DNA from: Candidatus Omnitrophota bacterium
GTDB lineage: Bacteria > Omnitrophota > Gorgyraeia > Duberdicusellales > 4484-171
Assembly (NCBI GenBank): GCA_037146775.1
Contig: JBAWWL010000002.1
Location: 198,554-262,553, forward strand
Direction: 5' to 3'
DNA: 64,000 nucleotides
Below the pieces are notes generated by a model. It was not told the origin of the DNA and made no database searches. It saw only the letters and a list, made by a program, of their open reading frames with translations. Positions 2,784 to 60,390 of the stretch are shown one piece after another. The position numbers and the translations under genes are program-made. The first letter of the stretch is position 1. Each line of letters starts with the position of its first letter.

Positions 2784-3634
2784 TTGTGCTAGTAGGCACG
2801 GTTCCCTATAAAACTGGTTTGTATGTGGGTAAGGCCGCTATCCAAGGCGGGGTTTTGCAGATAGGTAGCGGTTCTTTTTCTATTGAGCGAGGAACTGCGG
2901 CAATGGCAGCTTCGTGCGTGCAGGTGTGCAGTTTTTATAATACAGAGATGCCTTTATGTATTTTTGGAGGAGATATTTCCGACGGAAAAGGAACGGACTT
3001 GATGTTTCAAGAAGTAAATACCAATATCGATGCCTACAAGCCCGATCTGGTTACGCTGCATTATATGTTTCCGAAAGTTAAGTATGGTCAGCCGTTTATA
3101 AATAAAATTGAATCTTTGCAAAAAAAACCACAACTTATAGCTGACGCCGGCGGCATGTATTTGATGAAAACCATCAATAAGGCGCATTTTTTTGATGTGT
3201 TTACTCCGGATTGGGGAGAGTTGTATTTTTTAGCCGACGAATTTGCGCCGCACCCCTTATACGTAAGGAGCGAATTACTCGAGAAAAATGTTTCCTTGCA
3301 ATCTTTGGTGGATGCCGCTTACAAAAAGAATAATACTGCTAAAACCACTATCGTTAAGGGTGTCGTAGATCATCTGTATGCTGATAATATTAAAATAAAG
3401 GAGCTTTCCCAGCCCAACATCCCGGCAATGGAAGCGATAGGCGGTACCGGAGATACTATTACCGGTATGCTTTCTGCGTTAAGGTATATGGGATGCTCCG
3501 ACGCGGATTACAAGGCGCTTACGATAAATCGTCTTATTGGCGAAGAAATCAAATGTAGTCCGGCAACCCAAATAGCCGAATTTATAACAGCGATTCCGAA
3601 AGTTTTAGCTCAGTATGAAAAAAAGATATCTTAG
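2780..3634 (+). CDS. Hypothetical protein with a GGTGDTITGML motif reminiscent of YjeF_C / ribokinase-fold carbohydrate kinases
   Basis: AIGGTGDTITGMLSALRYMG resembles the GGsGDvLaG nucleotide-binding loop. 4-bp overlap with the upstream gene. Confidence 0.25.
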   Translation: MIVLVGTVPYKTGLYVGKAAIQGGVLQIGSGSFSIERGTAAMAASCVQVCSFYNTEMPLCIFGGDISDGKGTDLMFQEVNTNIDAYKPDLVTLHYMFPKVKYGQPFINKIESLQKKPQLIADAGGMYLMKTINKAHFFDVFTPDWGELYFLADEFAPHPLYVRSELLEKNVSLQSLVDAAYKKNNTAKTTIVKGVVDHLYADNIKIKELSQPNIPAMEAIGGTGDTITGMLSALRYMGCSDADYKALTINRLIGEEIKCSPATQIAEFITAIPKVLAQYEKKIS

Positions 3635-19351: not shown

Positions 19352-19474
19352 GGGTAGTTAAAGGGGTCAGACCCATAATTAAAGGGGTCAGATCTTCAGA
19401 TGTCAGATAAATTGCGGAAGGTAGTTAAAGTAATTAAAGGGGTCAGACCTTCAGATGTCAGATAAATTGCGGAA
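19352..19474 (+). repeat. Tandem (~57-bp unit x2, first copy shortened) REP-like element containing the 30-nt core AAAGGGGTCAGACCTTCAGATGTCAGATAAATTG
   Basis: Core copies at 19358-19374 (partial), 19381-19417 (one mismatch) and 19436-19472. The same core recurs at 24280-24313 (+) and 29981-30008 (-). It contains the small palindrome GGTCaGACC. Confidence 0.6.
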
Positions 19475-39732: not shown

Positions 39733-40575
39733 ATGTTAAAGCGATACATATCAAAAAAAATAATCCAGACTTTACTGCTGTCTTGTATCTGTGGCATTCT
39801 TTGTATCTCCCAGGTACTCGCCGGTGATATTGTTATCTACGGAGATAGCCAGTTTAGTAATGATGCCCAGCGTAAAGTAGTAAGAGCTATCCTAGAATGC
39901 AAGCCCGCAATAGTTTTCCGGGTAGGGGATCTTACGGCAGACGGTCGCAGCCTAAAACAATGGGAAACCTTTCATAAAATCAATGATAAGCTTATACAAA
40001 GTAGCGAATACTTCCCCGCGCTTGGCAATCACGAATATAATTCTGCGCTCTATTTTAGTAATTTTAATCTAGCGCTTGATAAACGGTGGTATTCAGTCCA
40101 GCGCCAAGGCATCCATTTCATTGTCTTAGATAGCAATTCCAGCCTCGATAAAGATTCAGAGCAATACAAGTGGTTAGAGCGAGACTTAAGCAACGTCGGG
40201 AAAGATATCAAATTTCGTATTGCGCTCTTTCATCATCCGTTATTTGATACCGGCTGGCACAAGGAAGACGAGAAAGGGCTAAAGCCTGTTCTTATTCCTT
40301 TATTCGAGAAGTATGGTGTGTCTGTAGTGTTTTCCGGCCATGATCATAATTATCAGCGCTTTAGATATAATGGCATCTTTTATATTATTACCGGCGGAGG
40401 AGGAGCACCTCTTTATGGCCGCCTGCGTAAGAGTTCGTATCTTGAGAAATTCGCTCTCGCATATCATTTTTGTCTGTTGTCTGTAACAGATAATGTGCTG
40501 AAGATTAAAGTGCTTGATACTAAACTGCAAGTTCTTGACGAATTTGATATCAAAGAGAAAGTATATAGTCGATAG
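39733..40575 (+). CDS. Secreted calcineurin-like metallophosphoesterase
   Basis: GDLTADG, GNHEY and FSGHDHNYQR metallophosphoesterase motifs. The ATG at 39733 gives a signal peptide and is preferred over the GTG at 39682. The last codons overlap a GTATATAGT repeat array. Confidence 0.65.
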   Translation: MLKRYISKKIIQTLLLSCICGILCISQVLAGDIVIYGDSQFSNDAQRKVVRAILECKPAIVFRVGDLTADGRSLKQWETFHKINDKLIQSSEYFPALGNHEYNSALYFSNFNLALDKRWYSVQRQGIHFIVLDSNSSLDKDSEQYKWLERDLSNVGKDIKFRIALFHHPLFDTGWHKEDEKGLKPVLIPLFEKYGVSVVFSGHDHNYQRFRYNGIFYIITGGGGAPLYGRLRKSSYLEKFALAYHFCLLSVTDNVLKIKVLDTKLQVLDEFDIKEKVYSR

Positions 40576-40685
40576 TATATAGTCGTGAGTATTGAGTACT
40601 GAGTATATAGTGGGGGAAGGACGTATATAGTATAGAGTACATAGTATATCGTAAACAAACTGGGCGGAGGGTAACGGGGAACTCG

Positions 40686-40764
40686 GTGGACGGTTGCGGT
40701 TACTCGCCTCGATTTGCTCGGCGAAGCGGGCGAAGCTCGTCTCGGTTACGTCTAACGGTAACGT
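40686..40764 (+). repeat. GC-rich ~80-bp element, left copy of an inverted pair bracketing 40.7-45.6 kb
   Basis: ACGGTTGCGGTTACTCGCCTCGATTTGCTCGGCGAAGCGGGCGAAGCTCGTCTCGGTTACGTCTAACGGTAACG is ~90% identical to the reverse complement of 45532-45615. Confidence 0.55.
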
Positions 40765-41065
40765 TTTATAATAAACTCTAAACCAAAATATTTCAAACTC
40801 AAAACACTATTGTTTAGGATTTTGAATTTATGATTTTGGATTTGTTTAGGATTTAGTCCTTCGACTTCGCTCAGGACTAATGGCGAGCACAGTCGAACCA
40901 TTAGAGTTTTCCACCTCCATAATGCACTTATTATGGTGGATCCGCCTAAGTTTTAACGGTGGCGGAAGTGTTTAGGGTTTATTTACCACAACCTCACGAC
41001 TACATACTCTATACTACATACGACATATTATCTCCCTACTGCAATGCTTGACAAGATAATCTGTT

Positions 41066-41644
41066 ATGGTACTTTATTACCATAAACATGGTGACAATAT
41101 GATATCCTTACGTTCAAAAGTGGCAATAAAATTACTGGACTACTATTTTCTTAATCCGGATACTCATGCGTACATCAATGAATTGGCCAGGACATTAGAG
41201 CTTGATCCTAAAAATACCGAAACTAAACTTAAGGAATTTGAGAAAGAAGGCCTTTTTAAAAGCGAATTCCGCGGAAAAGAAAGATATTTCTTTCTCGCAA
41301 AGGATAACCCCGTTTTGGAGCATTACCGCCAGATTTTTCTAAAGACCTATGGTATAGAAAAGAGGCTTCAAGATATGCTGCGGGGGATTAAGGGGCTTAC
41401 GGAAGCATATCTATTCGGTTCATATGCAAGTAACAAGATGAACTCTTCAAGCGATATTGATATCCTAGCTATTGGCACGCACTCTGTTTTAGAATTGCAA
41501 AGATTCATCGCAAAATTGCAGAAAGATGTCGGTAGAGAATTCAATGTAACGAATTTAAACCTAAAGGAATTCGAGGCAAAGAAAAAATGTAAAAACCCTT
41601 TTATAAATAGCGTTTTTAAAACTAAGACTATAAGGCTTATATGA
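41066..41644 (+). CDS. Nucleotidyltransferase (MNT-type antitoxin-like) with an N-terminal winged-helix region
   Basis: The GS...SDIDIL nucleotidyltransferase motif (LFGSYASNKMNSSSDIDILAIG). 4-bp overlap with the downstream HEPN gene. Confidence 0.6.
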   Translation: MVLYYHKHGDNMISLRSKVAIKLLDYYFLNPDTHAYINELARTLELDPKNTETKLKEFEKEGLFKSEFRGKERYFFLAKDNPVLEHYRQIFLKTYGIEKRLQDMLRGIKGLTEAYLFGSYASNKMNSSSDIDILAIGTHSVLELQRFIAKLQKDVGREFNVTNLNLKEFEAKKKCKNPFINSVFKTKTIRLI

Positions 41645-42039
41645 TTAATTTTGAAAGTCAATACTTTCAGAAACTGGCATTTAAAAAGGAGCAAATTGAC
41701 CAATTCGTAAGGTCCGCCCTTCATGATCTTAAGATAGCTCAAAATTCGGATATTGTGGATGTTATCTTTAAGTTCAGTTACGATGCGCTCATAAAATTAG
41801 GTATTGCGCTCATTGCTAAGAAAGGGTACAAAATAAGGAGCACAATCGGTCATCATGTTAAGATACTTGAGAAACTGAGCCAAATACTTGGAGAAGAGGA
41901 TGTCCTCGTGCTTGGCAATAAGATGAGACAGGAACGTAATGTTAATCTTTATGATGGCGGTTTCTTTATTGGAGAGAAAGACAGCCGCGAATATTTGGAT
42001 TTTGTAAAGAAAGTTTTTAAGAAAGCAAGCATAGAATAG
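41641..42039 (+). CDS. HEPN-domain protein (toxin partner of the MNT)
   Basis: Rx4H motif (KIRSTIGHH). All-alpha HEPN-sized protein coupled to the MNT gene. Confidence 0.6.
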   Translation: MINFESQYFQKLAFKKEQIDQFVRSALHDLKIAQNSDIVDVIFKFSYDALIKLGIALIAKKGYKIRSTIGHHVKILEKLSQILGEEDVLVLGNKMRQERNVNLYDGGFFIGEKDSREYLDFVKKVFKKASIE

Positions 42040-42060: not shown

Positions 42061-42290
42061 TCTTTAATTTTTCTCCCCTTACTATGTACGACATACTCTG
42101 TACTACATACTTTTTTATGTTTAATTTTTCTCCCTCCCATTATCTTTTCCCCGGTTTCAATTTTTAATATTTAATTTTTCTTTTACTCTATACTCATTAC
42201 TCAATGCTCACGACTACATACTATGTACTACATACTCCATGCTACCCATTATTGCCTAATAACCTACCAACATAATAACCTATCAACCAT
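42061..42290 (+). repeat. G-depleted degenerate short-repeat array (TACTACATAC / CCTA(A/C)CAACAT units)
   Basis: ctatgtacgacatactctgtactacatac...cacgactacatactatgtactacatactccatgctacccattattgcctaataacctaccaacataataacctatcaacc. Related arrays occur at 40981-41015, 45340-45480, 45621-45700 and 51170-51250, and on the opposite strand at 34681-34760 and 40561-40655. Confidence 0.5.
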
Positions 42291-45177: not shown

Positions 45178-45531
45178 AAGAGTGCTTAATATAATAACTA
45201 AAATGGAGTATGCTCCATTATGGTAATACTAATATGGAGGGTGTTTTTACGGGCACTGTGGTCCGGGAAAATAATTTAAGTAGAGGATAGCTGTCCCAAC
45301 CTTTTCTGCATATCAATTCGCTAATCCTTTAACCCTTCCTGTCCTTATATATCCATTTTTAATATTTGATATTTAATATTTAATTTTTCTCCCCCCTTCT
45401 TGCCTAATAACCTATCAACATACCAACCTATCAACCTATATCCTTTTCCCCCCCCTGCTATGTACTACATACGCCATACTACATACGATCTTTCTTTATG
45501 TTTCGCACACGTCATCCGTTATGATGTATGA

Positions 45532-45615
45532 GCCGTTGCCGCTAAACGTAACCGATACGAGCTTCGCCTGCTTCGCCGAGGGAATCGAGGCGAGTAACCG
45601 TAACCGTTCGCCAAG
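45532..45615 (-). repeat. GC-rich ~80-bp element, right (inverted) copy
   Basis: Its reverse complement GCTTGGCGAACGGTTACGGTTACTCGCCTCGATTCCCTCGGCGAAGCAGGCGAAGCTCGTATCGGTTACGTTTAGCGGCAACGG matches 40686-40764. Confidence 0.55.
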
Positions 45616-45919
45616 CTTGCCTACTATGTAATCTATACTCCGTACTACCCATTATTGCCTACTAACCTATCAACATACTCACCTATTAACCATTATAGTT
45701 AATTCATAAAAAAACTATTGACATCTTTTTATATAATGTTAAATTAAAGTAACGGTTTTTTTTAATGAGGCAGCAACTTTTCAAGCCTATAGGCAAAGAA
45801 AAATTGCTTAGCCGAATTAATCCGACGAGGCTGCTAAAATTATGGTAGAGGATTTTAGCGTATGTAAGTCCGAGTCGGGATATGTACAGAAATTATATTA
45901 AGGATAAAAAAGGAGGGGT

Positions 45920-46534
45920 GTGATGATAAAGGGTAATTTAAGGATTGGTTTTGTTTTCTTGTTTGCTTTACTTCTTACCGTAAGCGCTGTGTATGCAGAA
46001 ATTAATCTTTCCACTTCCGGCGGAAAGTTAGGTATTAAAGCCGCAGGTAAAACTACTAATTTAGATAGTAATACCACTGAAACCACCGTTTCCGATTCAT
46101 CAGGAGCAAAAGTTGATATAAATTATAATGCCGCAGAAGGTACTGCTAGTTTAGCTTCTAGCACAGGCACCGCCACCCTCACGTATAATATCGCAAAAAT
46201 ATTTTTAGATAACGGTGAATCTGCTGACGTAGGCCCTACCGGCCCATACGGAAGTTTTTATATTACCAATACTTCAGGTGAGGGAAAGATTGTTGTAATA
46301 TTCCCCGACAACTCGAAAATCACCATGCCTCCAAGTGCGAAAGTTTCTCTCACTTTTCTTGCTGACGACAATTTTAATTTAAAAGTATTAGAGGGAACGG
46401 TTGAATATGTTGACGCGAAAGGTAACGCGCAGATGCTAACGCCAAACTCTCCTGCGATATTCGTAAAGGGTTTCGGCCAGGTTCCTGGCTGGCGTAGCAT
46501 TGAACCTGACAGGTTACATCCTGCAACCCCATAG
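45920..46534 (+). CDS. Secreted Thr/Ser/Gly-rich hypothetical protein
   Basis: Signal peptide. SD AAGGAGGGG upstream. First gene of the glycan locus. Confidence 0.3.
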   Translation: MMIKGNLRIGFVFLFALLLTVSAVYAEINLSTSGGKLGIKAAGKTTNLDSNTTETTVSDSSGAKVDINYNAAEGTASLASSTGTATLTYNIAKIFLDNGESADVGPTGPYGSFYITNTSGEGKIVVIFPDNSKITMPPSAKVSLTFLADDNFNLKVLEGTVEYVDAKGNAQMLTPNSPAIFVKGFGQVPGWRSIEPDRLHPATP

Positions 46535-46600
46535 TTTATTATTTTGTAATTTGAATTTTGTTATTTGTCATTACCAAAGAGGAGGATGAACGTGGAAAAG

Positions 46601-47764
46601 ATGAAGTTAAGTAAATGTTTTATCGTAGTGGCTGTTTTATTATTGCTCGTTGCGCCTTATGCCCGTGCAGAATTTATGGTTAAGCCTGTTAGGGGCACTC
46701 TGCTGGTTTCTGAAGGCATGCTTTATAATAGTAACCCTGGCTATGCTGATGTTGGTGCCCGCGAACATGACTGGGCAAACCAGATGTCTGCAGGGTTATC
46801 TCTTGAAGTTCCTTTTGGCCAGATCCATAAATACACCCTTAATTCAAACACCACATGGATTAAATATTTTACCAATCATAAGTTTAACCAAGTTAATAAT
46901 AATCTTACTCATTCTGTGGATTTTACTTTTAACCGCTGGGCGTTGAATATTCATCAGAATTTTGATGCTAGCTCTGTGCCTGATACTAACGAAATGCCTA
47001 TTGTTTCAAAAGAACTTCTTCGTAAACGTATAAATGCTCCTGGTTTTGCTGTCAGGGGAGATTTAGGTAAACTTAAATTATCCGGCGGTTTTGATTACCA
47101 AGATTATGATACAAACGATGAATATAAAATATTACAGAGAAAAACTTATACACCTTACCTAGAAGGTGCCATGCAGATAACCCCGCTTCTTGATGGTTTT
47201 ATGCGTTATACCTATACTCGCACAATTCGAGCTGAGAATGTGTTAAACAATAGCCATGGTAATGATGTCAAGGTTGGTTTACGTGGAAACTTAACCCCTT
47301 ATCTTACCGGTGAAGTAGGGATTGGCTATGACTGGACTGATTTTAGTCAATCTGGTACTACCGGTGATCAAAGTAATTATCATGGTCTTGTTTACTCAGG
47401 AGGCCTTACTAATCGCCTGTCAAAACACACCACACAAAAGATTTCTTTCTCGCTTGAACCGGAACAAGGTTACAGCGATGCTAACTACTATAAGTGTTGG
47501 ACCACAGAATATATGCTTTCCCATACTTTAAATACCAAAGTTGACGTGAACGCTTCTGTGGGGTATATTCTTAGCAATGAGTCAGGACATGCTTACGATA
47601 TGGAAAAGTCAAATATTTGGCAGTTTGGCACCGGCTTTAATTATCATTTGGCCAAAAATTCAGATTTAGTAGTGGGTTATAATTTTAGTGATAAAAGTTC
47701 TAACAGGCCCGGTAAAAATTACAAACAACACGCTCTCTCTACGAGCGTAAATTACCGATTCTAA
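46601..47764 (+). CDS. Outer-membrane beta-barrel protein
   Basis: Signal peptide, alternating amphipathic beta-strand pattern and a C-terminal ...VNYRF with terminal Phe. Start at ATG 46601 or GTG 46592, after AGGAGG. Confidence 0.5.
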   Translation: MKLSKCFIVVAVLLLLVAPYARAEFMVKPVRGTLLVSEGMLYNSNPGYADVGAREHDWANQMSAGLSLEVPFGQIHKYTLNSNTTWIKYFTNHKFNQVNNNLTHSVDFTFNRWALNIHQNFDASSVPDTNEMPIVSKELLRKRINAPGFAVRGDLGKLKLSGGFDYQDYDTNDEYKILQRKTYTPYLEGAMQITPLLDGFMRYTYTRTIRAENVLNNSHGNDVKVGLRGNLTPYLTGEVGIGYDWTDFSQSGTTGDQSNYHGLVYSGGLTNRLSKHTTQKISFSLEPEQGYSDANYYKCWTTEYMLSHTLNTKVDVNASVGYILSNESGHAYDMEKSNIWQFGTGFNYHLAKNSDLVVGYNFSDKSSNRPGKNYKQHALSTSVNYRF

Positions 47765-50830: not shown

Positions 50831-53533
50831 GTGGTGTGCAGAGAAGATTTCAATCAATCCTCACGTAAATCCAATTCTTTCATATTTAAAATCACCTTAT
50901 TCAGTGCTATTCTTCTAATTCCACTTGTTGCCTCTACTGAATATCTTTGGGCAATCAGCTTCATCATTCTTTTAGGAAGTATTACCTTATTGGTGATTGC
51001 CTTGGATATTTTTCATTCCAAGCGCATTGAATTTATTCCAACCTTCATTCTTCCCCTTATTTTATTTTTACTCATCTATTTTCTCATCACCCTAATATCT
51101 CTCCCAGCCTTTATTTTGCAATTTCTCTCCCTCCGTGCCTTCGCTATCTATAGCAACTATTTGCCCCCCGCTTCGCCTACCAACCTACCAACATCTTTGT
51201 ATACCAACATACCAACATATCAACCTACTAACCTATTTACCCTTTATCCTATTAGCCTATACCCACACAATACGCTCGTAGGCTTAGGTGTAGCACTATC
51301 TTTTTTCGCCATATTTCTATTCCTCATTAATAATCTCGACAGTTTTCGTTTAAGGATAAAGATAGTAAAAACAATTATTTTTTCTGCTACTCTCGTAACT
51401 TGCTTAGGAATTATTAATATGCTAATTCAGAATAAAAAATTGTTCTGGTTTATAGATATAATATCCGGTACACCCACAGGCCCTTTTATTAATACCATTC
51501 ACTTCGCCTCATTCGTGGCGCTCTATATACCTTTGGTATTGGGCATATGGGTTGGTAAAATTGATTTTCATATAAAAGATTGTAAATTCGGCAAAGCTAA
51601 GTCAATGCTCTATAAGTTCATAATATTTATAAAAAATTCAATTATCTATTTACTCCCGGCTTTGTTGATGATATTCGCTTTATTTAAGTCGCTTTCCCGC
51701 GGAGCAATGTTAGCTTTTTGTACTTCAATGTTTATCTTTGTATTGCTTATAGCTTTTAAATCAAAAACTCGTCTACGCGCTATCATTCTTCTAGTTTTTA
51801 CTTTTTCGTTTTTAGCTTTGACTTTCTATGTCGACTCGTTTAATATCAAATCCAAAATATTGTCATTAACCAATAGTCAAGGCGAAAACGCCATATTCAA
51901 CCAAGATATAACAGAAAGAATTTCTACACTTAAACACCCGTTGCAAACCGATAGTGCAAAGACGCGTTTTAGTGTTTGGCGTGATACTCTTAAGATATTT
52001 TCTGATTTTCCGTTATTTGGCACAGGCCTAAATACTTTTAGCATTATTTTTCCTAAATATAAGACTATCTATGGTTCTGGAAAAATGTTTTTTACTCACT
52101 CCGAGAATGATTATGTTGAAACTCTATCTGAAGTTGGTTTATTAGGTATAATACCAATATTATTAATCTTGATAATCTTTTTAAGAAACACATTCATAAA
52201 TTTTAAATTAGAAACCGACTCTCTAAAAATTGGTATTATTTCTGGTGGCATCGCTTCCGTTTTTGCGCTTCTTTTTTGCGCATTAACCGATTTTTCTTTC
52301 CATATCCCTTCTGTTAGTTTTATTTTTATGCTTATCTGTTTCGTAATTTGGCCAAAGACAAAAAAAAGAAAAATTATCTCATTTAATGATATGGTGGGCA
52401 GGAAGAAACCTATAGCTATTGTGGTATTGCTATTTTTAGTGGCAATATTTATGTTTATATTTTCTGTTCAACTATTATTAGGCGAAATATATTTCTATAA
52501 ATTTAATTATTCTCAAGATAGCTTTCAGGTTAAACAAAACTATATTAAAAAAGCTGTCTTTTTTAATAATGGTAATGCGGAATATAGGTACTCTTTAGGA
52601 AAAATTTATTTTGATCAAGCGACTTTGCTAAGGAATAAAGATGAAGCTGCAGCTTTAGAGCTTATCAAACAGGCGAAAACAGAATTTGAAAAAGCGATAA
52701 TTTTGCAACCTACTCATTGGAAGTACCATTTTTTTAACGGCTCAGCTGAACTTATTCTTGTTTCTTCTCGGGTCAAGGGCTATTCTTTTAACAATGCTGA
52801 ATCTTCCTTTGAAAAAGCCTTAAGTCTAAATCCTACAGAATACGATATATACGGTTATTTAGCTAATTACTATTTGCCTTTTGATTCAGAAAAAGCATTT
52901 AAGTATTATCGTAAGCTTATCATGCTTAGGCCATATTATTTAGGTAGTATATTAGATACTATTTGGAAAATAAACAATAATCCTGACTTTATCCGAGAAG
53001 CCATTCCCAGTACTCCAAGGTTAATAGCGCAATACGCTGATTTTTTAAAATCTAAAGGTATCAATTCTGCTAAATTCTATAAAGAATCTGCTTTTCTCGC
53101 GTCTCCTTCCGCAAAAAATAAAGAAGACCAACTTGCTATCGCCCAAAAGCTCGCTCTTTCCAATGGTTTCAAGGACGCTTTTGATTATTTCCTTGATTCT
53201 TTACAGTCAAGTAGCTTTTTCCAAAAGAATAAAGAACAATTTATCATCCCGACATATTCTAGTGAACAACTTATAAAAGAAGAGGAGAATGTCAGCACAT
53301 TACAAAAAACACTTTCTCCCGACGATCCTCAGCTAACATATAAATTAGCCCTTTTCCATTATCAGCTAAAGGACTATAATAAAGCTTCTGAATACTTTAT
53401 GAAATTACTAAAAATCTCTCCCAACAACCCCTTTCTGCGCTTCCACCTCGCTATGGCATTGTATAAGAGGGGAGAGCATAAAGAGGCGTACGAGGAGCTC
53501 AGGCAGGCTATTACTTTGATTAATGACAGATGA
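50831..53533 (+). CDS. O-antigen ligase/polymerase-like (Wzy_C) polytopic membrane protein with a C-terminal TPR domain; start uncertain
   Basis: Many TM helices then a TPR-like C-terminus (YFMKLLKISPNNPFLRFHLAMALYKRGEHKEAYEEL). The first ~140 codons include a repeat-derived low-complexity stretch (PTNLPTSLYTNIPTYQPTNL) encoded by the CCAACMTA array at 51170-51250. Confidence 0.55.
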   Translation: MVCREDFNQSSRKSNSFIFKITLFSAILLIPLVASTEYLWAISFIILLGSITLLVIALDIFHSKRIEFIPTFILPLILFLLIYFLITLISLPAFILQFLSLRAFAIYSNYLPPASPTNLPTSLYTNIPTYQPTNLFTLYPISLYPHNTLVGLGVALSFFAIFLFLINNLDSFRLRIKIVKTIIFSATLVTCLGIINMLIQNKKLFWFIDIISGTPTGPFINTIHFASFVALYIPLVLGIWVGKIDFHIKDCKFGKAKSMLYKFIIFIKNSIIYLLPALLMIFALFKSLSRGAMLAFCTSMFIFVLLIAFKSKTRLRAIILLVFTFSFLALTFYVDSFNIKSKILSLTNSQGENAIFNQDITERISTLKHPLQTDSAKTRFSVWRDTLKIFSDFPLFGTGLNTFSIIFPKYKTIYGSGKMFFTHSENDYVETLSEVGLLGIIPILLILIIFLRNTFINFKLETDSLKIGIISGGIASVFALLFCALTDFSFHIPSVSFIFMLICFVIWPKTKKRKIISFNDMVGRKKPIAIVVLLFLVAIFMFIFSVQLLLGEIYFYKFNYSQDSFQVKQNYIKKAVFFNNGNAEYRYSLGKIYFDQATLLRNKDEAAALELIKQAKTEFEKAIILQPTHWKYHFFNGSAELILVSSRVKGYSFNNAESSFEKALSLNPTEYDIYGYLANYYLPFDSEKAFKYYRKLIMLRPYYLGSILDTIWKINNNPDFIREAIPSTPRLIAQYADFLKSKGINSAKFYKESAFLASPSAKNKEDQLAIAQKLALSNGFKDAFDYFLDSLQSSSFFQKNKEQFIIPTYSSEQLIKEEENVSTLQKTLSPDDPQLTYKLALFHYQLKDYNKASEYFMKLLKISPNNPFLRFHLAMALYKRGEHKEAYEELRQAITLINDR

Positions 53534-53542
53534 CAAGATATA

Positions 53543-53566
53543 CAATGACAAATTACAAAGCTCAAA
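53543..53566 (+). repeat. Left arm of a ~24-bp inverted repeat bracketing 4HB gene 1 (partner at ~54016-54039)
   Basis: AATGACAAATTACAAAGCTCAAAT versus the reverse complement of downstream ATTTGAATTTTGTACTTTGTCATT (21/24). Additional ATGACAA copies upstream and TTTGTCAT copies downstream. Confidence 0.5.
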
Positions 53567-53615
53567 TGACAAATAATATCAGACTAACAAAAGTCACTTA
53601 ATAACAAAGGTCAAA

Positions 53616-53987
53616 ATGGAAATGACAAAAGGTATAGTTGGAGATAATAAATTTGACCTTGAAGGTAGAACGTTGATTTTTGCTAAAAATTGCATTGATT
53701 TGTGTAAAATGTTGATGTGCGACACTATAAACAGGGAATTAATAAGCCAGCTTGTAAGGGCTTCTGGCTCAGTAGGTGCAAACTATCGAGAAGCGAACGA
53801 AGCTCTAACAAAAAAAGATTTTTTCCACCGCATTGGAATATGCAGAAAAGAGGCTAAGGAAAGCAAATACTGGTTAGAATTATTGTCACATACTAATCCA
53901 AAGCTTTCTAATAAAATTGAGGTATTAGCTGACGAAGCATTGCAATTAGCGCGTATTTTCTCAGCTATAGTAAAAAAACGCGTCTAG
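53616..53987 (+). CDS. Four-helix-bundle protein (PF05635/TIGR02436 family: 23S rRNA IVS protein / DGR Avd-like)
   Basis: QLVRASGSVGANYREA..KKDF...CRKEAKESKYWLELL matches the family consensus. It is paralogous to 55638-56003 and 57310-57711. Confidence 0.65.
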   Translation: MEMTKGIVGDNKFDLEGRTLIFAKNCIDLCKMLMCDTINRELISQLVRASGSVGANYREANEALTKKDFFHRIGICRKEAKESKYWLELLSHTNPKLSNKIEVLADEALQLARIFSAIVKKRV

Positions 53988-54127
53988 TTTTTCCTTTCGT
54001 ACTTTTTTGTTATTTGAATTTTGTACTTTGTCATTAACCAATATTTGACATTTGAATTTTGTAATTTGTTCTTAGTTCATTTGTCCTTTGTGCTTTGTCA
54101 TTTGTCATTTTAACCGTAGGTTAACCC

Positions 54128-55519
54128 ATGTTCATAAGTAGTCGTAAATCGTTTCTCACCGGCAAGTCCAAGCTTATCTTCATCGATATTCTGGCTCTGT
54201 GTCTTTCTGTTTATTTAGCAACTATTATTCGAATTGGCTGGGAAGACGCAAATCGTTATATCAGCTTAAAGCTCTTGCCTCTTGGTTTCGGTATTTTTAT
54301 CTTTCTTACCTTATTTTATCTTCATGGTTTATATGAACTGCATTTTTTTGATACTTACTTAAAGCTTATCTCACGAGTAATATCTGCAGTTCTCCTTGGT
54401 ATTTTAATCTATACTTTTATTTTTTATGCTGTATTTACGTTTGCTATAGGTAGAGGTGTATTTACCTTAATGGCATTGCTCATCGCTACATTTGTTTTTT
54501 TCCCCAGAATATTTTATATCTCGGTTGCCAAAAGAAATATTTTAGGTGAAAAAGTAATTATAGTAGGTACTGGTGAAGCAGCTTTTGACATCATCAATAT
54601 TATAGATAAGCACCCCACTTGTCCTTATAGAATAATCGGTGTTATTAGTGAAAAAGAAAAAGAAACTATCTCTAGCTTTGGGCACCATCAACTTATGGGT
54701 TCCATTGATGATATTGATCAAATCGCCGAGCAAAATAAAATTGACACAATCATAATTACAACTCTAGAGCCAAGGCGTTCCAAAATATTAAAACATTTAA
54801 GAGTATGTCGTTATCATGGTGTGCGTATTATCGATAGTGTTTCTTTATATGAAGAGATTGAGGGTAGAGTTCCTCTGCAATATATAGATGATGAATGGCT
54901 ATTTTCTTCCAACATGAATTATTCTAACTTTCACATCAAAAAATTAAAAAGGTTAATGGATATTATTGGTTCTTCGATTGGTATTATTCTCGTTTTCCCT
55001 TTATGCCTTGTCGTGAGTATTCTTATCAAGTTTGATTCAATCGGGCCTATTTTCTATCGACAAAAAAGATTAAGTCGAGATGGCAGGATTTTTCGCTTGC
55101 TCAAATTTCGCTCAATGATTCATCGTGCCGAGCGAGGATTGGGCGGTCCGGTGTGGTCACAAACAAATGATAACCGTATCACTCGAGTGGGTAAATGGAT
55201 GCGTAAAACTAGAATTGATGAAATTCCCCAGCTTATTAATGTGTTTTTAGGCCACATGAGTCTAGTGGGTCCTCGACCTGAACGCCCCGCTTTTATTAAA
55301 GAACTATCTGAAAAAATTCCCTTTTACTTAGAAAGGCTTTACGTTCAACCTGGCTTAACCGGCTGGGCGCAAATTAACTATCCTTATACCGCTACAATAG
55401 AGGAGTCAAGAATAAAACTGCAATACGATTTATACTACATCAAACACGTCTCCTTTTTGTTAGACTGCCTTATTCTATTGAAAACCATCAAAATCGTCCT
55501 TCTCAGCCGCGGCCGTTAG
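54128..55519 (+). CDS. Undecaprenyl-phosphate sugar phosphotransferase (WbaP/WcaJ-type priming glycosyltransferase)
   Basis: Five TM helices, then a C-terminal bacterial sugar transferase domain ([25 protein letters not shown]...[21 protein letters not shown]). Confidence 0.8.
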
Positions 55520-55602
55520 CTATTTACCCATATAAACCCTGTCTTATTTCCGACGTGGATTGTATTGACGCATTGTGATATGTTATGATATAATTAAAAC
55601 TT

Positions 55603-55616
55603 AAAAGTAAAAAGTC
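55603..55616 (+). repeat. Left arm of a 14-bp inverted repeat bracketing 4HB gene 2 (partner at ~56022-56036), with further TTTTAACTTTT / TTTACCTTTTTCGTTTTAAC tandem copies downstream to 56180
   Basis: TTAAAAGTAAAAAG upstream. CTTTTTACTTTTAA downstream. Confidence 0.45.
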
Positions 55617-55637
55617 AAAACTAAAAATATAAGTTAA

Positions 55638-56003
55638 ATGGAGAATAAAGTTTACGATTTAAAGAAACGTACGTATGTGTTTGCTTTAGATGTTATTAGG
55701 TTTCTTGAAAGTTTACCAAAGGATTATATTTCTATTGTTATCGGGAAACAGTTGTTACGCTCAGCAACTTCTGTGGGAGCGAATGTGGTCGAGGCGCAGG
55801 CTTCTAGCTCCAAGAAGGATTTTATAAATTTCTATAATTATTCATTAAAATCCGCAAACGAAACAATATTCTGGCTAAGTTTACTTAAGGATGCAAATAG
55901 AGATCCTAATCAGAAAATACCTCTTCTTCTAAGCGAAACACAGCAGCTCTCAAAAATTCTTGCTGCAAGCATTCTGACAATGAAAGGAAAGAGAAAGCCT
56001 TGA
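55638..56003 (+). CDS. Four-helix-bundle protein (PF05635 family), paralogue 2
   Basis: QLLRSATSVGANVVEAQ..SKKDF..NETIFWLSLL. Confidence 0.65.
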   Translation: MENKVYDLKKRTYVFALDVIRFLESLPKDYISIVIGKQLLRSATSVGANVVEAQASSSKKDFINFYNYSLKSANETIFWLSLLKDANRDPNQKIPLLLSETQQLSKILAASILTMKGKRKP

Positions 56004-56182
56004 ATTTAAATTTTCGCTCTAACTTTTTACTTTTAACTTATTTTATTCAGTGGATTACTTTTTCGCGTTTTGATTTTTAACTTTTACCTTTATTTCGTTT
56101 TACCTTTTTCGTTTTAACTTTTAACGTTTCTGTTCAAAGTATTCACTTTTACCTTTTTCGTTTTAACTTTTAACTTAATAAT

Positions 56183-56419
56183 ATGACCGTCAACGATAAT
56201 GAAATCTACACCTTAGAAGAAGCTCAGTCTATATTAAAGATCAGTCGCTCCACCCTATTGCGTCTTATCAAGAAAGGTCTAATTAAAACCGCAAAAGTCG
56301 GCCGTCAATATCGAATCTGGGGTAATGAAATTCTGCACATCATGTCCCCATCTTTAGAAGGCAAAGTCCGTAAAGAGTATAGGAAAAGTAGGGAATGGTT
56401 GTATAAAGGCATAAGTTGA
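56183..56419 (+). CDS. Excisionase-family / MerR-like helix-turn-helix DNA-binding protein
   Basis: YTLEEAQSILKISRSTLLRLIKKGLIKTAKVGRQYRI matches the excisionase-family DNA-binding domain pattern. Confidence 0.5.
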   Translation: MTVNDNEIYTLEEAQSILKISRSTLLRLIKKGLIKTAKVGRQYRIWGNEILHIMSPSLEGKVRKEYRKSREWLYKGIS

Positions 56420-56452
56420 TAGGCCTTATGTTTTTAGGCATAGGAGGTTAAT

Positions 56453-57286
56453 TTGGACAACACTTCGCAAAAAACTATTGTTATCGAAGCAGGCCGGACG
56501 AGGGGATTATATTGGAGAGATCTTTGGCATTATCGTGCATTATTTTATTTCTTATCTTGGCGGGACATTCTTGTCAGGTATAAACAAACAGTTATTGGTA
56601 TTGCTTGGAGCGTTATCAGGCCATTGCTTACCATGGTTGTCTTCACTTTTGTATTCAGCAAATTAGCGAAATTTCCTTCTGAAGGCGTTCCATATCCTAT
56701 CCTGGTCTTTACCGCTATGCTTCCTTGGCAATTTTTTGCGAATGCTCTTAGCGAAAGCAGTAATTCCCTTATTACTAACGCTAATATGCTTACCAAAGTT
56801 TATTTTCCGCGGCTCATCGTTCCCGTAAGCACCATTATCGTTTGTCTAGTTGATTTTATTATATCATTGTTACTTCTTGTTGTGCTTATGGTGATATATA
56901 AGTTTACCCCTTCTTTAAATATTTTAATACTGCCACTATTTCTTCTTCTGTTGCTGATTTTTTCTCTTGGTCTAGGTCTTTATATATCAGCATTAAATGT
57001 AAAGTATAGAGATTTCCGTTACGTCGTTCCTTTTATCGTCCAGTTCGGACTTTATATTTCACCCGTTGGTTTTAGCTCAAGCGTTGTTCCTGATAAGTGG
57101 AAATTATTTTATTATTTGAATCCAATGGTAGGAATAATTGATAGTTTCAGATGGGCAATCCTTGGAGAGAGTGTTCATATCTATTGGCCGGGATTTATCC
57201 TTTCTATTATCTTATCTGTAGTTATTTTCATTTTTGGTTTACTGTATTTTCGTAAAACCGAACGCACGTTTGCTGATATTATATAA
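56453..57286 (+). CDS. ABC-2 type polysaccharide export permease (Wzm/KpsM-like)
   Basis: GLYWRDLWHYRALFYFLSWRDILVRYKQTVIGIAWSVIRPLL and six TM helices. Confidence 0.7.
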   Translation: MDNTSQKTIVIEAGRTRGLYWRDLWHYRALFYFLSWRDILVRYKQTVIGIAWSVIRPLLTMVVFTFVFSKLAKFPSEGVPYPILVFTAMLPWQFFANALSESSNSLITNANMLTKVYFPRLIVPVSTIIVCLVDFIISLLLLVVLMVIYKFTPSLNILILPLFLLLLLIFSLGLGLYISALNVKYRDFRYVVPFIVQFGLYISPVGFSSSVVPDKWKLFYYLNPMVGIIDSFRWAILGESVHIYWPGFILSIILSVVIFIFGLLYFRKTERTFADII

Positions 57287-57300
57287 TGAATTCTTTGTTA

Positions 57301-57326
57301 TAGTTACCAATGTCCAATGAGCTAAT
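57301..57326 (+). repeat. Left arm of a ~25-bp inverted repeat bracketing 4HB gene 3 (partner at ~57757-57781)
   Basis: CAATGTCCAATGAGCTAATGACGAAT versus the reverse complement of downstream ATTCGTCATTCGGATTTGGACATTG, which is CAATGTCCAAATCCGAATGACGAAT. Confidence 0.55.
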
Positions 57327-57711
57327 GACGAATAAAATATCAATGATTCAAGCCAACAATAGTAAATACGATTTACGTGAGCGAACAGCAAAGTTTGGCG
57401 AAAATGTCATTAATTTTGCTAAAAGAATTCCAGAGTCTACTATAAACCGGCCCTTGATAAGTCAGTTAGTAAGAGCGGCTACAAGCGTGGGCGCAAATTA
57501 CTGCGAAGCAGATGATGCTACCACTAAGAAGGATTTCCTATACAGAATTGCTGTGTGCAGAAAGGAGTCTAAAGAGTCCAAGCATTGGTTGCGGATGGTA
57601 ACGATGGCTATTCCGGCGTTGAAGGATGAAGCGAATTTGTTATCTAATGAAGCGCAGGAATTGAATCTTATTTTTTCTGCGATTATCAATAAAGGAAAAG
57701 CTAAATCTTGA
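57310..57711 (+). CDS. Four-helix-bundle protein (PF05635 family), paralogue 3
   Basis: QLVRAATSVGANYCEA..KKDF..CRKESKESKHWLRMV. Confidence 0.65.
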   Translation: MSNELMTNKISMIQANNSKYDLRERTAKFGENVINFAKRIPESTINRPLISQLVRAATSVGANYCEADDATTKKDFLYRIAVCRKESKESKHWLRMVTMAIPALKDEANLLSNEAQELNLIFSAIINKGKAKS

Positions 57712-57810
57712 TAGGCTAATTTGTCATTTTGACTTGTTCATTGGGATTTCAGTATAGTTCATTCGTCATTCGGATTTGGACATTGTGATTTTAGTTTAGA
57801 CTTTAAGTTT

Positions 57811-59070
57811 ATGAGTACGGTCATCAAAGTCGAAAATCTAGGCAAAAGATACGTTATAAGTCACCAAGAGCAACAGCGCTATCGGACTCTTCGTGATGTT
57901 GTTACTAATAAGTTTAAATCATTCGGCAAGAAGACGGCTTCGACCAAAGAGGAAATATGGGCGCTCAAAAATGTTTCGTTTGAAGTAAAGCAAGGAGAAA
58001 GAGTTGGCATTATCGGAAGGAACGGCGCGGGTAAATCCACTCTGTTAAAGCTATTAAGCAGAATAACCGAACCAACGAAAGGTAAGATTGGGCTGTGCGG
58101 CCGTGTGGGGAGCCTTCTTGAGGTTGGCACCGGTTTTCATCCTGAGTTGACCGGGAGGGAGAATATATATCTTAATGGCGCCATCCTAGGTATGTCAAAA
58201 TCGGACATACGCAAGAAATTTGATGATATTGTTGCTTTCGCGGAAATTGATAAATTTCTTGATACGCCAGTTAAGCGGTATTCGTCAGGAATGTATGTCC
58301 GGCTTGCCTTTGCCGTTGCTGCCCACTTGGAACCAGAGATTCTTTTGGTGGATGAAGTTCTTGCCGTTGGTGACGTCTCATTCCAGAAGAAATGTTTAGG
58401 AAAAATGGAGGATGTGTCTCAAGAGGGCCGGACCCTCCTATTTGTAAGCCACGATCTGGTGGCGGTCAGAAAACTTTGTAAAAGAACTATCCTTTTATGT
58501 GATGGAAAAATAGAGAAAGATGGTTTTACCGACAGCGCTATTGATGCATATTTGAATTATTCCAGGAACGCGACAGAAGGATTGTATTGCTGGAATGAGC
58601 CTGCGGGTCGTCAGAAAGTTTGGCCTGTGCAATTAGAGATATTAGATGAATCGATGAATCGAATATCCAATATTCCTTTCGATAGTGCTGTAACCATAGC
58701 GCTAAGAATTAAAGTGTATGAAGCGTTTAGCTTCCAGGTGAGCCTTCGCATCACTAACAATCTTGCGATTCCCATCTTTTCTACTGAGCCAAGTCAAGAG
58801 CTTATGTTTTATAATCGCGGTTATTATAATTTCTCTCTTAAGTTGCCGTTCGCTTTATTGTCGCCAGGTTATTATCGTGTTGCGTTGGGTATCCATGATC
58901 CAGGAACAGAGGTATTTTTTTTCGAAGAGCAGATATTGTCGTGGCAAGTAATCGAGACGGGTACAAATATGGCAAAATACAAGAAATATCATGAAACAGG
59001 AGTAATTATTGTTGATATTCCCTGGGAAATAATTTATAACAAACAGGATGGCAAAATTGAACCGTGTTAA
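57811..59070 (+). CDS. Polysaccharide ABC exporter ATP-binding protein (Wzt-like) with a C-terminal glycan-binding domain, copy 1
   Basis: Walker A GRNGAGKST, signature YSSGMYVRLAFA, Walker B LLVDEVLAVGD, plus a ~200-aa beta-rich C-terminal extension (Wzt_C-like). Confidence 0.8.
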   Translation: MSTVIKVENLGKRYVISHQEQQRYRTLRDVVTNKFKSFGKKTASTKEEIWALKNVSFEVKQGERVGIIGRNGAGKSTLLKLLSRITEPTKGKIGLCGRVGSLLEVGTGFHPELTGRENIYLNGAILGMSKSDIRKKFDDIVAFAEIDKFLDTPVKRYSSGMYVRLAFAVAAHLEPEILLVDEVLAVGDVSFQKKCLGKMEDVSQEGRTLLFVSHDLVAVRKLCKRTILLCDGKIEKDGFTDSAIDAYLNYSRNATEGLYCWNEPAGRQKVWPVQLEILDESMNRISNIPFDSAVTIALRIKVYEAFSFQVSLRITNNLAIPIFSTEPSQELMFYNRGYYNFSLKLPFALLSPGYYRVALGIHDPGTEVFFFEEQILSWQVIETGTNMAKYKKYHETGVIIVDIPWEIIYNKQDGKIEPC

Positions 59071-59145: not shown

Positions 59146-60390
59146 ATGTCAGTAGTCATCAAAGTCGAAAATCTAGGCAAAAGATACGTTATAAGTCACC
59201 AAGAGCAACAGCGCTATCGGACTCTTCGTGATGTTGTTACTAATAAGTTTAAATCATTCGGCAAGAAGACGGCTTCGACCAAAGAGGAAATATGGGCGCT
59301 CAAAAATGTTTCGTTTGAAGTAAAGCAAGGAGAAAGAGTTGGCATTATCGGAAGGAACGGCGCGGGTAAATCCACTCTGTTAAAGCTATTAAGCAGAATA
59401 ACCGAACCAACGAAAGGTAAGATTGGGCTGTGCGGCCGTGTGGGGAGCCTTCTTGAGGTTGGCACCGGTTTTCATCCTGAGTTGACCGGGAGGGAGAATA
59501 TATATCTTAATGGCGCCATCCTAGGTATGTCAAAATCGGACATACGCAAGAAATTTGATGATATTGTTGCTTTCGCGGAAATTGATAAATTTCTTGATAC
59601 GCCAGTTAAGCGGTATTCGTCAGGAATGTATGTCCGGCTTGCCTTTGCCGTTGCTGCCCACTTGGAACCAGAGATTCTTTTGGTGGATGAAGTTCTTGCC
59701 GTTGGTGACGTCTCATTCCAGAAGAAATGTTTAGGAAAAATGGAGGATGTGGCGAGGCAGGGAATGACCGTTATTTTCGTAAGCCATAATATGGGAGCAA
59801 TTGAGAATTTATGCCAACGTACTATATTGATTGACGCCGGAGCGGTGAAAAGGGACGATGATACATCGACAACGATTGCGTTATATTTAGAAAATATTTC
59901 TACGAATATTTCAACTGTGTCGCTGTTGGAGCGTAAAGATCGCTCAGGATCAGGAATCGTTAAATTCTCTGATTTTCGAATAGAAGATTTGCTGGGTAAT
60001 TCGTTGAATGTTGTTCATAGTGGGCAAGATATTGTCTTTATTTTTGATTTTGCCTCGACAAATTCCGCAAACTCGCTTAACGTAGATGTCGGTTTTGGTG
60101 TTTTTTCTCCCATGGGTCAACTTCTTTTTGTTCTTTATAGTAGCTATACTGGAGAAGAATTTAAAGAGCTTGCCATACAAGGGAGTTTTTGTTGCAGAGT
60201 TAATAAATTACCATTGATACCTGGACGGTATAGAGTAGGGGCACGAATTGTGGTGGGGCAGGATGAGTCTGATTGGCCGGCCGACGGTATCGGTTATTTC
60301 GATGTTGAGGCTGGTGATTTTTACGGTACAGGGAGTATGGGGTTTGGCCAGTGTCCGATATTAGTTGACGGTTCGTGGTTTTTGAAATAA
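59146..60390 (+). CDS. Wzt-like ABC ATP-binding protein, copy 2 (5' 610 bp identical to copy 1, different C-terminal domain)
   Basis: Nucleotides 59152-59762 are identical to 57817-58427. Divergence begins after ...KKCLGKMEDV. Distinct C-terminal beta-rich domain. Confidence 0.8.
   Translation: MSVVIKVENLGKRYVISHQEQQRYRTLRDVVTNKFKSFGKKTASTKEEIWALKNVSFEVKQGERVGIIGRNGAGKSTLLKLLSRITEPTKGKIGLCGRVGSLLEVGTGFHPELTGRENIYLNGAILGMSKSDIRKKFDDIVAFAEIDKFLDTPVKRYSSGMYVRLAFAVAAHLEPEILLVDEVLAVGDVSFQKKCLGKMEDVARQGMTVIFVSHNMGAIENLCQRTILIDAGAVKRDDDTSTTIALYLENISTNISTVSLLERKDRSGSGIVKFSDFRIEDLLGNSLNVVHSGQDIVFIFDFASTNSANSLNVDVGFGVFSPMGQLLFVLYSSYTGEEFKELAIQGSFCCRVNKLPLIPGRYRVGARIVVGQDESDWPADGIGYFDVEAGDFYGTGSMGFGQCPILVDGSWFLK

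Follow-up and report, generated by a model that had tools for sequence, protein, structure and literature searches.

A four-helix-bundle gene cassette bounded by inverted heptamer arrays at the wzm-wzt junction of a Candidatus Omnitrophota bacterium

The 64-kb stretch of Candidatus Omnitrophota DNA analyzed here (the window; 40.6% GC, with AT-rich spacers) contains, between the wzm and wzt genes of a polysaccharide-export operon, a small cassette (cassette 3) in which an open reading frame for a four-helix-bundle (4HB) protein is enclosed by inverted arrays of ~7-nt units. By analogy with the homologous elements of 23S rRNA genes, it is probably an intervening-sequence (IVS)-type 4HB cassette located outside rRNA, with a hairpin most likely cut by RNase III (a probability of about 0.6). 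It belongs, in a somewhat degraded form, to a conserved class in which a 4HB ORF sits in a hairpin of inverted AAT-N4 heptamers, placed co-directionally in an operon junction, and it links the 4HB gene family to the equally unexplained heptamer repeats. To our knowledge, the function of PF05635-type genes has remained unexplained since the description of the Leptospira IVS in 1993.

Cassette 3 lies between wzm and wzt and not in a 23S or 16S rRNA gene. The two genes are 524 nt apart, compared with 6 and 12 nt in two orthologous loci (L087 and L088) that encode Wzm proteins 77% and 73% identical with the same C-terminus, followed by the same Wzt N-terminus. Because the orthologous gaps are so short, cassette 3 is, on this sequence comparison, an insertion of ~510 nt that fills the junction. 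A further locus (L081) was dropped as an empty-site comparator, its Wzm being only 29% identical, and L087 and L088 were used instead. The window has three 4HB ORFs only, all in consecutive junctions of one co-directional polysaccharide cluster with the order Wzy_C/TPR - cassette 1 - Bac_transf - cassette 2 - HTH_17 - wzm - cassette 3 - wzt - wzt2 - methyltransferase (Table 1). No Rfam family matches anywhere in the 64-kb window, which gives no rRNA hits, and rRNA signature motifs are absent from all of the related loci fetched. The interval 53300-58000 has no terminator-like sites (0 versus 3.3 expected), with no T-run after the cassette 3 stem. A putative promoter for cassette 3 at 57729-57758 matches at 10/12 positions, yet the region has fewer promoter-like sites than shuffled sequences; sigma-70-like sites are not in excess in the region as a whole. 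The top sigma-70-like match of the region (55565-55594; TTGACG-18-TATAAT with an upstream TG, 11/12) abuts the left array of cassette 2.

Two further features of the host genes were observed. The wzt gene has a tandem second copy (59146-60390); their DNA is the same over nt 9-605, the ATPase domain, beyond which the two genes part into different carbohydrate-binding Wzt_C ends. This looks like a recent duplication or recombination changing glycan specificity. In a Candidatus Brocadia contig (MWTE01000097.1; locus L089, Wzm 75% identical) the wzm-wzt junction is occupied by a HEPN and nucleotidyltransferase pair (1804-2615), and small selfish modules seem to land at this junction repeatedly.

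The ORF of cassette 3 has alternative in-frame starts at 57325 and 57343, with the conserved core beginning at about 57364; the NCBI entry 100% identical to the protein uses the start at 57325 (128 aa). By its profile matches the product is a predicted '23S rRNA intervening-sequence / four helix bundle' protein (PF05635, 46.5 bits with a cut-off of 33.8; TIGR02436, 66 bits with a cut-off of 24), and it is a relative of the solved four-helix-bundle structure PDB 2RLD (E = 7e-12). It has 6259 homologues, and residues S59, V60, G61, N63, E66 and A67 are invariant in the homologue alignment (motif S-x-G-A-N-x-x-E-A). The protein has a pI of 9.45, and the 4HB proteins are basic (pI 9.1-9.8; >8.5 in 97% of 120 homologues). 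The 'MSNE..MTNK..M' N-terminal extensions of cassette 3-type proteins are AATGNC arm units translated, which explains the odd M-S/T-N-D/E extensions produced by gene callers.

The inverted repeat of cassette 3 is real and exceeds chance. The left arm core CAATGTCCAATGAGCTAATGACGAAT (57308-57333) covers the ATG at 57310 and the further in-frame one at 57325, in agreement with a preliminary description that had placed the upstream arm over the start codon region. A repeat finder pairs 57308-57317 with 57776-57785 (10/10 complementary) and 57324-57340 with 57754-57770 (17 nt, 88%), the latter including a second perfect 10-mer; between the two perfect 10-bp segments is a bubble of TGAGCT opposite CGGAT (6x5 nt, previously given as 5-6 nt). 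The same description called the repeat a near-perfect 25-bp one, of which the repeat itself stands, with only 20 of 25-26 positions paired and the pairing much longer; it also put the wzt start 30 bp past the right arm, the distance to the ATG at 57811 being 25 nt. The word that it had found in common with cassette 1, TTTGTCATT (57720-57728), is present 8 times in the window versus 1.3 expected, and all copies are in cassette-type flanks, with six in those of cassette 1, one in cassette 3 and one in a solo array at 46564. Exact 10-mers of the cassette 3 arms have no further copy within the 64-kb window.

Pairing of the arms, which had been proposed for checking by RNA folding, is predicted by two approaches. 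The MFE fold of 57287-57812 joins them (z = -2.97, 0/100 shuffles), and RNAduplex of the wzm-side and wzt-side spacers gives -41.5 kcal/mol, compared with -23.9±3.7 for shuffles (z = -4.8, 0/300). The paired span extends from 57287-57357 on the left to 57728-57806 on the right, which is the whole wzm-wzt spacer and well beyond 25 bp. The left arm pairs best with its own right arm, the duplexes with the right arms of cassettes 1 and 2 reaching -26.3 and -20.1. The arms are 427 nt apart, and the stem is interrupted with its inner part decayed; the local inverted-repeat score of 30 (family median 40.5) places cassette 3 among the weaker examples of the family. Its units are degenerate with spacings of 7, 8, 7 and 10, and TRF makes no call on them. 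A stem with its ends precisely at the wzm stop and the wzt start, coupling the translation of the two genes, was considered and rejected: in RNAduplex, shuffled and non-cognate controls reach the ends nearly as often, with an overhang sum of 24 observed versus 22 shuffled.

Table 1. Coordinates of the cassettes, their parts and the adjoining genes (positions in the window, except for the hairpins of locus L049, which are numbered within that locus).
Feature	Coordinates	Strand	Description
Cassette 1	53517-54112	+	Left array AATGACA-type 53517-53629; ORF 53616-53987; right array TTTGTCA-type 54003-54112
Cassette 2	55596-56176	+	Left array AAAAGTN/AAAACTN 55596-55637; ORF 55638-56003; right array TTTTAAC/TTTTACC 56000-56176
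wzm, upstream host gene	56453-57286	+	ABC-2 permease, PF01061; orthologues 73-77% identical, with wzt 6-12 nt after
Outer left spacer	57287-57307	+	Weak pairing with 57786-57806 (MFE fold, RNAduplex); extension no better than controls
Cassette 3 left arm	57308-57357	+	Units AATGTCC / AATGAGCT / AATGACG / AATAAAATATC / AATGATTC; homologous left arms in 7 close relatives
4HB ORF of cassette 3	57310-57711	+	133 aa from first ATG; PF05635, TIGR02436, 2RLD
Inner right flank, degraded units	57712-57760	+	TTTGTCATT 57720-57728; TTCATTGGGATTT 57738-57750; pairs with 57334-57357
Cassette 3 right arm	57761-57785	+	ATTCGTCATTCGGATTTGGACATTG; repeat finder
Spacer before wzt start	57786-57810	+	25 nt
wzt, downstream host gene	57811-59070	+	ABC ATPase with Wzt_C domain; PF00005, PF14524
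ORF-less hairpins of L049	1204-1317, 2402-2498, 5400-5592, 6098-6217		AATxxCT words, common central CTAATCAAT

The hairpin architecture extends across the family. A scan of one genome per species yielded 80 loci with proteins 51-67% identical, in Omnitrophota, many Patescibacteria, Planctomycetota, Gammaproteobacteria, Verrucomicrobiota, Cloacimonadota and others; no relatives were found in viral contigs, and phage records gave two weak matches only. When the 160 nt upstream of the conserved core were compared with the reverse complement of the 160 nt past the stop, 94% of 82 cassettes had cognate flanking inverted repeats above the 95th percentile of shuffles. Median scores were 40.5 for cognate, 23.5 for non-cognate and 17 for shuffled flanks, such that arms match their own partner best, yet words are common between loci. 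The ORF-in-inverted-heptamer-hairpin architecture of the rRNA IVS is thus the rule outside rRNA too.

The arms consist of ~7-nt units arrayed in inverted orientation, and the units have a conserved AAT-N4 skeleton; the preliminary description, supported as to pairing and conservation of the cassette, had missed this make-up, which in cassette 3 has become degenerate. Units across the loci include AATGACG, AATGTCT, AATTTCT and AATTGACCT, with their complements downstream. An AAT-to-AAT spacing of 7 is seen 214 times versus 16.6 in shuffles, and an unbiased period search gave 7 as the best period for 57/88 flanks on the upstream side and 60/88 on the downstream side. Of the consensus heptamers, 22/24 from upstream arrays include AAT and 27/30 from downstream arrays include ATT; C predominates at position 6, and the remaining positions are variable (16 distinct words in 22 arrays). 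The motif (AAT-N4)x3 has a density of 4.09/kb within 130 nt upstream and its ATT form 4.87/kb downstream, compared with 0.13/kb over the remainder of these loci (31-fold less) and 0.04-0.07/kb inside the ORF. This conservation of the AAT skeleton goes beyond what pairing alone explains. Homologues on cyanobacterial plasmids (30-37% identity) have perfect arrays in inverted orientation: (AATTCAA)4 on the left and (TTGAATT)4 on the right in Nostoc flagelliforme, (TAATTCG)4 and (CGAATTA)4 in Dolichospermum, (CAATTCG)4 and (CGAATTG)4 in N. punctiforme, and AATCCCC/AATCGTA with their complements in Planktothrix. In the locus with the closest Omnitrophota relative of cassette 3 (L081), outer inverted arrays (TTATCAG... 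and ...CTGATAA, at about 2900-3000 and 3450-3520) surround the AAT-type arms, and this double layer suggests nested hairpins.

The cassettes are oriented with their surroundings. Long neighboring ORFs are on the same strand upstream in 70/78 and downstream in 67/78 loci (about 88%), and every annotated example is co-oriented (csx2-[4HB]-cas1, DrmD-[4HB]-PglX, helicase-[4HB]-methyltransferase and KAS III-[4HB]-M20), which fits an element dependent on read-through transcription. Polysaccharide, CRISPR, DISARM/BREX, ATP-synthase and other operons contain them. Eighteen such four-helix-bundle genes were earlier reported inside cas loci (PMC3936711), a location attributable to cassettes of this type sitting co-oriented in operons. 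Their nature as hairpin cassettes explains the apparent 'association' of 4HB genes with unrelated operons, as well as the assembly breaks beside these genes.

The arms of cassette 3 are also conserved in sequence. Eight cassettes encoding proteins 66-78% identical form a subfamily in unrelated host contexts (wzm/wzt, a glycosyltransferase/epimerase cluster, an ATP-synthase operon, peptidase M28, OprB and a solute-binding protein), and their arms are homologous, with ...AATGACCAATGTCCAATGAtttAATGACGAATGAAATCcCAATGAc... on the left and TTGGG.ATTGGGATTTGGACATTCATTCGTCATTcGGATTTGGaCATTG on the right. A segment of 28 nt that includes the cassette 3 right arm (57758-57785; TTCATTCGTCATTCGGATTTGGACATTG) matches the right arm of L098, the cassette in the ATP-synthase operon, without a difference. 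Arms are therefore conserved in homologous cassettes, as the preliminary description required of them, both in architecture and in subfamily sequence. Identity within the subfamily is 86% at codon positions 1+2 and 50% at position 3, placing the protein under purifying selection; the arms (77% for the left and 68% for the non-coding right) are conserved above the neutral level given by third positions, with unit-level slippage making column-wise alignment of these arms unreliable. Three short metagenome contigs with cassette 3-type cassettes (L098, L099 and L100) end 29-145 nt past the 4HB stop, in or just beyond the right arm, as would be expected if assemblies break at a dispersed repeat.

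The two sister cassettes have period-7 arrays that are called by TRF. The arm duplex of cassette 1 is strong (-67.5, z = -6.6), and that of cassette 2 is not significant against shuffles (z = -1.3) because both of its arms are of low complexity. The cassette 2 protein is more divergent, and its array has an AAAA-N3 skeleton instead of AAT-N4. A solo array of the cassette 1 right-arm type (ATTTTGTAATTTGAATTTTGTTATTTGTCATT; 46541-46572), with neither a left arm nor a 4HB gene, separates ORFs 45920-46534 and 46565-47764 and takes up the 30-nt spacer there.

Hairpins of the same kind are found without an ORF. In L049 a hairpin of roughly 100-190 nt spans each junction in a run of co-directional genes, from stop to start (Table 1), and one hairpin (2951-3432) has the 4HB ORF in its loop; ORF-less paired AAT/ATT arrays are present within 3 kb in 7/80 loci. 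The arms therefore have a life apart from the ORF, and the L049 pattern resembles the relation of an autonomous element to MITEs or of RAYT to REPINs, in which a gene between inverted short repeats is likewise accompanied by dispersed ORF-less hairpins. The 4HB protein differs from RAYTs and transposases in having no recognizable transposase or nuclease fold, and the arms differ from REP/REPIN sequences in being 7-mer arrays and not a single palindrome. The hairpin architecture outside rRNA, the range of operons that contain the cassettes and the same-word ORF-less hairpins in neighboring spacers together provide a testable model for the gene family and the heptameric repeats.

Over-represented heptameric repeats have been described in Xanthomonas (GGGAATC, with 70-75 convergent, or inverted, pairs per genome) and Nostoc (GGGGATT; Rehm et al. 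2015, PMC4692102), and in the Beggiatoaceae (TAACTGA; PMC4679880). These and the cyanobacterial STRR sequences share with the cassette arms a 7-nt period, an intergenic location and frequent convergent pairs; the published words, like the arms, contain AAT/ATT, and GGGGATT is the complement of AATCCCC, the Planktothrix left arm. Head-to-tail 7-nt units in intergenic positions are found family-wide, and cassette 3 differs from the published repeats in having degenerate units that are not in perfect tandem. Neither PMC4692102 nor PMC4679880 links heptamer repeats to PF05635 genes, and no description of a hairpin architecture for non-rRNA PF05635 copies was found in full-text literature with few subscription journals covered. 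A speculative extension, to which we give rather long odds, is that PF05635 genes would be the ORF-bearing 'autonomous' members of an AAT-N4 hairpin family, with the encoded basic oligomer recognizing the arrays and being needed for their spread, maintenance or processing. If true, this would tie together the rRNA IVSs, the ubiquitous four-helix-bundle genes and the heptameric repeats (STRR, GGGGATT, GGGAATC), with hairpins punctuating operons and stable-RNA genes in a relation like that of RAYT and REPIN.

The ORF-containing IVSs in the 23S rRNA of Leptospira, Coxiella burnetii, Brucella and Xanthomonas resemble cassette 3 in having a PF05635 'S23p' protein in the loop, an ORF in the sense of the host transcript, and terminal complementary sequences that form a long stem. 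In the Coxiella IVS the terminal stem measures 28 bp, and RNase III cleaves it in vitro, the mapped ends lying within the stem; this IVS also has tandem heptamers just upstream of the S23p ORF, as in cassette 3-type cassettes, and a poor Shine-Dalgarno sequence; RNase III cleavage is likewise reported for the Leptospira IVS (PMC4990558). Cassette 3 has the stem enclosing a sense ORF but lies between protein-coding genes of a polysaccharide-export operon, and not in helix 25 or 45 of 23S rRNA; it would work like a 23S rRNA IVS, yet fails the test of location that defines one. We propose that cassette 3, which is co-oriented with the operon and lacks both a terminator and a convincing promoter, is read through within the operon transcript, in which its arms would pair to form a long imperfect stem around the ORF, burying the three candidate start codons. 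RNase III, already considered in the preliminary description, would then cut this stem, and the cut would free the cassette RNA from the polycistronic transcript, making the insertion tolerable to the host. The proposed cleavage follows from the homologous 23S rRNA elements, which are bordered by complementary sequences and excised by RNase III, excision having been demonstrated for rRNA IVS elements only. The 64-kb window has no visible RNase III signature, and the cleavage of cassette 3, its effect on wzm and wzt expression and its mode of spread are what we infer.

The arms could alternatively act as DNA, either as the terminal inverted repeats of a mobile element or as its hairpin or cruciform, serving insertion or excision or having their identity kept by recombination, with the RNA stem as a by-product. 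Arm mismatches show no G·U excess (79 G·U-type and 96 A·C-type), and the duplex energy is the same for the sense and the antisense strand (-43.9 versus -44.8 kcal/mol; 39 versus 43 cassettes), such that no selection specific to RNA can be detected. A·A and T·T at unit centers are the most frequent mismatches, and this pattern together with the strand symmetry gives the complementarity the look of a genuine inverted repeat in DNA, which concerted evolution may maintain. The empty site in orthologous loci, the spread of 55-67% identical proteins over unrelated phyla and operons, the dispersed ORF-less copies with homologous arms in L049, and the frequent contig breaks at the right arm all agree with a DNA-level role. 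However, there is no consistent target-site duplication and no direct repeat at the borders of cassette 3 or of the perfect cyanobacterial cassettes, and the genes from 50.8 to 61 kb include no transposase or integrase; a transposase could still act in trans from beyond the 64-kb window. Multiple copies in Nostoc flagelliforme were considered as a sign of discrete mobility, but they share about 200 nt of flank and are thus segmental duplicates. The fixed polarity of AAT upstream and ATT downstream of the ORF, together with co-orientation, argues for a strand-specific function, and we consider a purely DNA-level role doubtful next to the RNA stem.

Polarity also enters into another proposal, that the arms are binding-site arrays for the encoded basic 4HB oligomer, which would contact AAU triplets with 4-nt variable spacers in the single-stranded 5' arm in a TRAP/GAG-like manner; competition between binding and stem formation would give autoregulation of translation or processing. 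This is a tentative possibility, rated slightly above a DNA-level role, and is compatible with an IVS-type cassette cut by RNase III. The conserved AAT (plus position-6 C) skeleton among otherwise variable words, a period of 7 that differs from the helical repeat, and the basic character of the proteins are as expected for such arrays. Avd, which is related to the 4HB proteins, binds nucleic acid. The 4HB homologues crystallize as pentamers (cited in PMC4990558 and PMC10053308). The divergent cassette 2 protein goes with a different skeleton, although protein and word would be expected to co-vary through common descent as well; moreover, arm complementarity needs a separate explanation, and the window contains ORF-less AGT/ACT arrays without a matching protein. 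A chance match in AT-rich low-complexity DNA, or an ordinary intrinsic terminator or attenuator, is highly improbable for the cassette 3 repeat. The AT-rich spacers and the cassette 2 duplex could be taken that way, but a chance match is refuted by the family-wide architecture, the absence of any equally stable duplex among 300 shuffles and the arm conservation above neutral, and the lack of a terminator-like site or T-run and the wide separation of the arms are contrary to a terminator.

Two known systems were compared and set aside as identities for cassette 3. Avd of diversity-generating retroelements has a homologous four-helix-bundle fold and is basic (PMC10053308), but the neighbors here are Wzy_C/TPR, Bac_transf, HTH_17, ABC2_membrane, ABC_tran and methyltransferase genes, and neither a reverse transcriptase nor a template/variable repeat pair adjoins any of the three cassettes. 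Integron cassettes are similar in their promoter-less small ORFs, co-directional insertion and imperfect inverted repeats; however, both attC arms are 3' of the ORF and IntI and attI are required, whereas cassette 3 has one arm on each side of its ORF and no integrase in the vicinity.

The window contains a second class of heptamer/octamer arrays (40556-41030, 42080-42290 and 45358-45700), with AGTATAT/AGTCGTG on one side and ACTACAT on the other and the additional words AACCTATC and TTTAATA. Its skeleton is AGT/ACT and not AAT, and it has no Rfam match. It forms an ORF-less inverted-repeat element with arms at 40561-40645 and 40993-41022, and a GC-rich core (40682-40763) that has a reverse-complemented copy at 45534-45615 (71/82 identical). 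A nucleotidyltransferase gene (41066-41644; PF18765/PF01909) overlaps a 132-aa ORF without a Pfam match (41641-42039); the pair is flanked on both sides by ACTACAT-type arrays and has a toxin-antitoxin-like arrangement (MNT/HEPN style). A direct duplication of ~50 nt (19387-19470; GGGGTCAGAyCTTCAGATGTCAGATAAATTGCGGAA) is located upstream of the gene at about 19.5 kb and appears unrelated to the cassettes.
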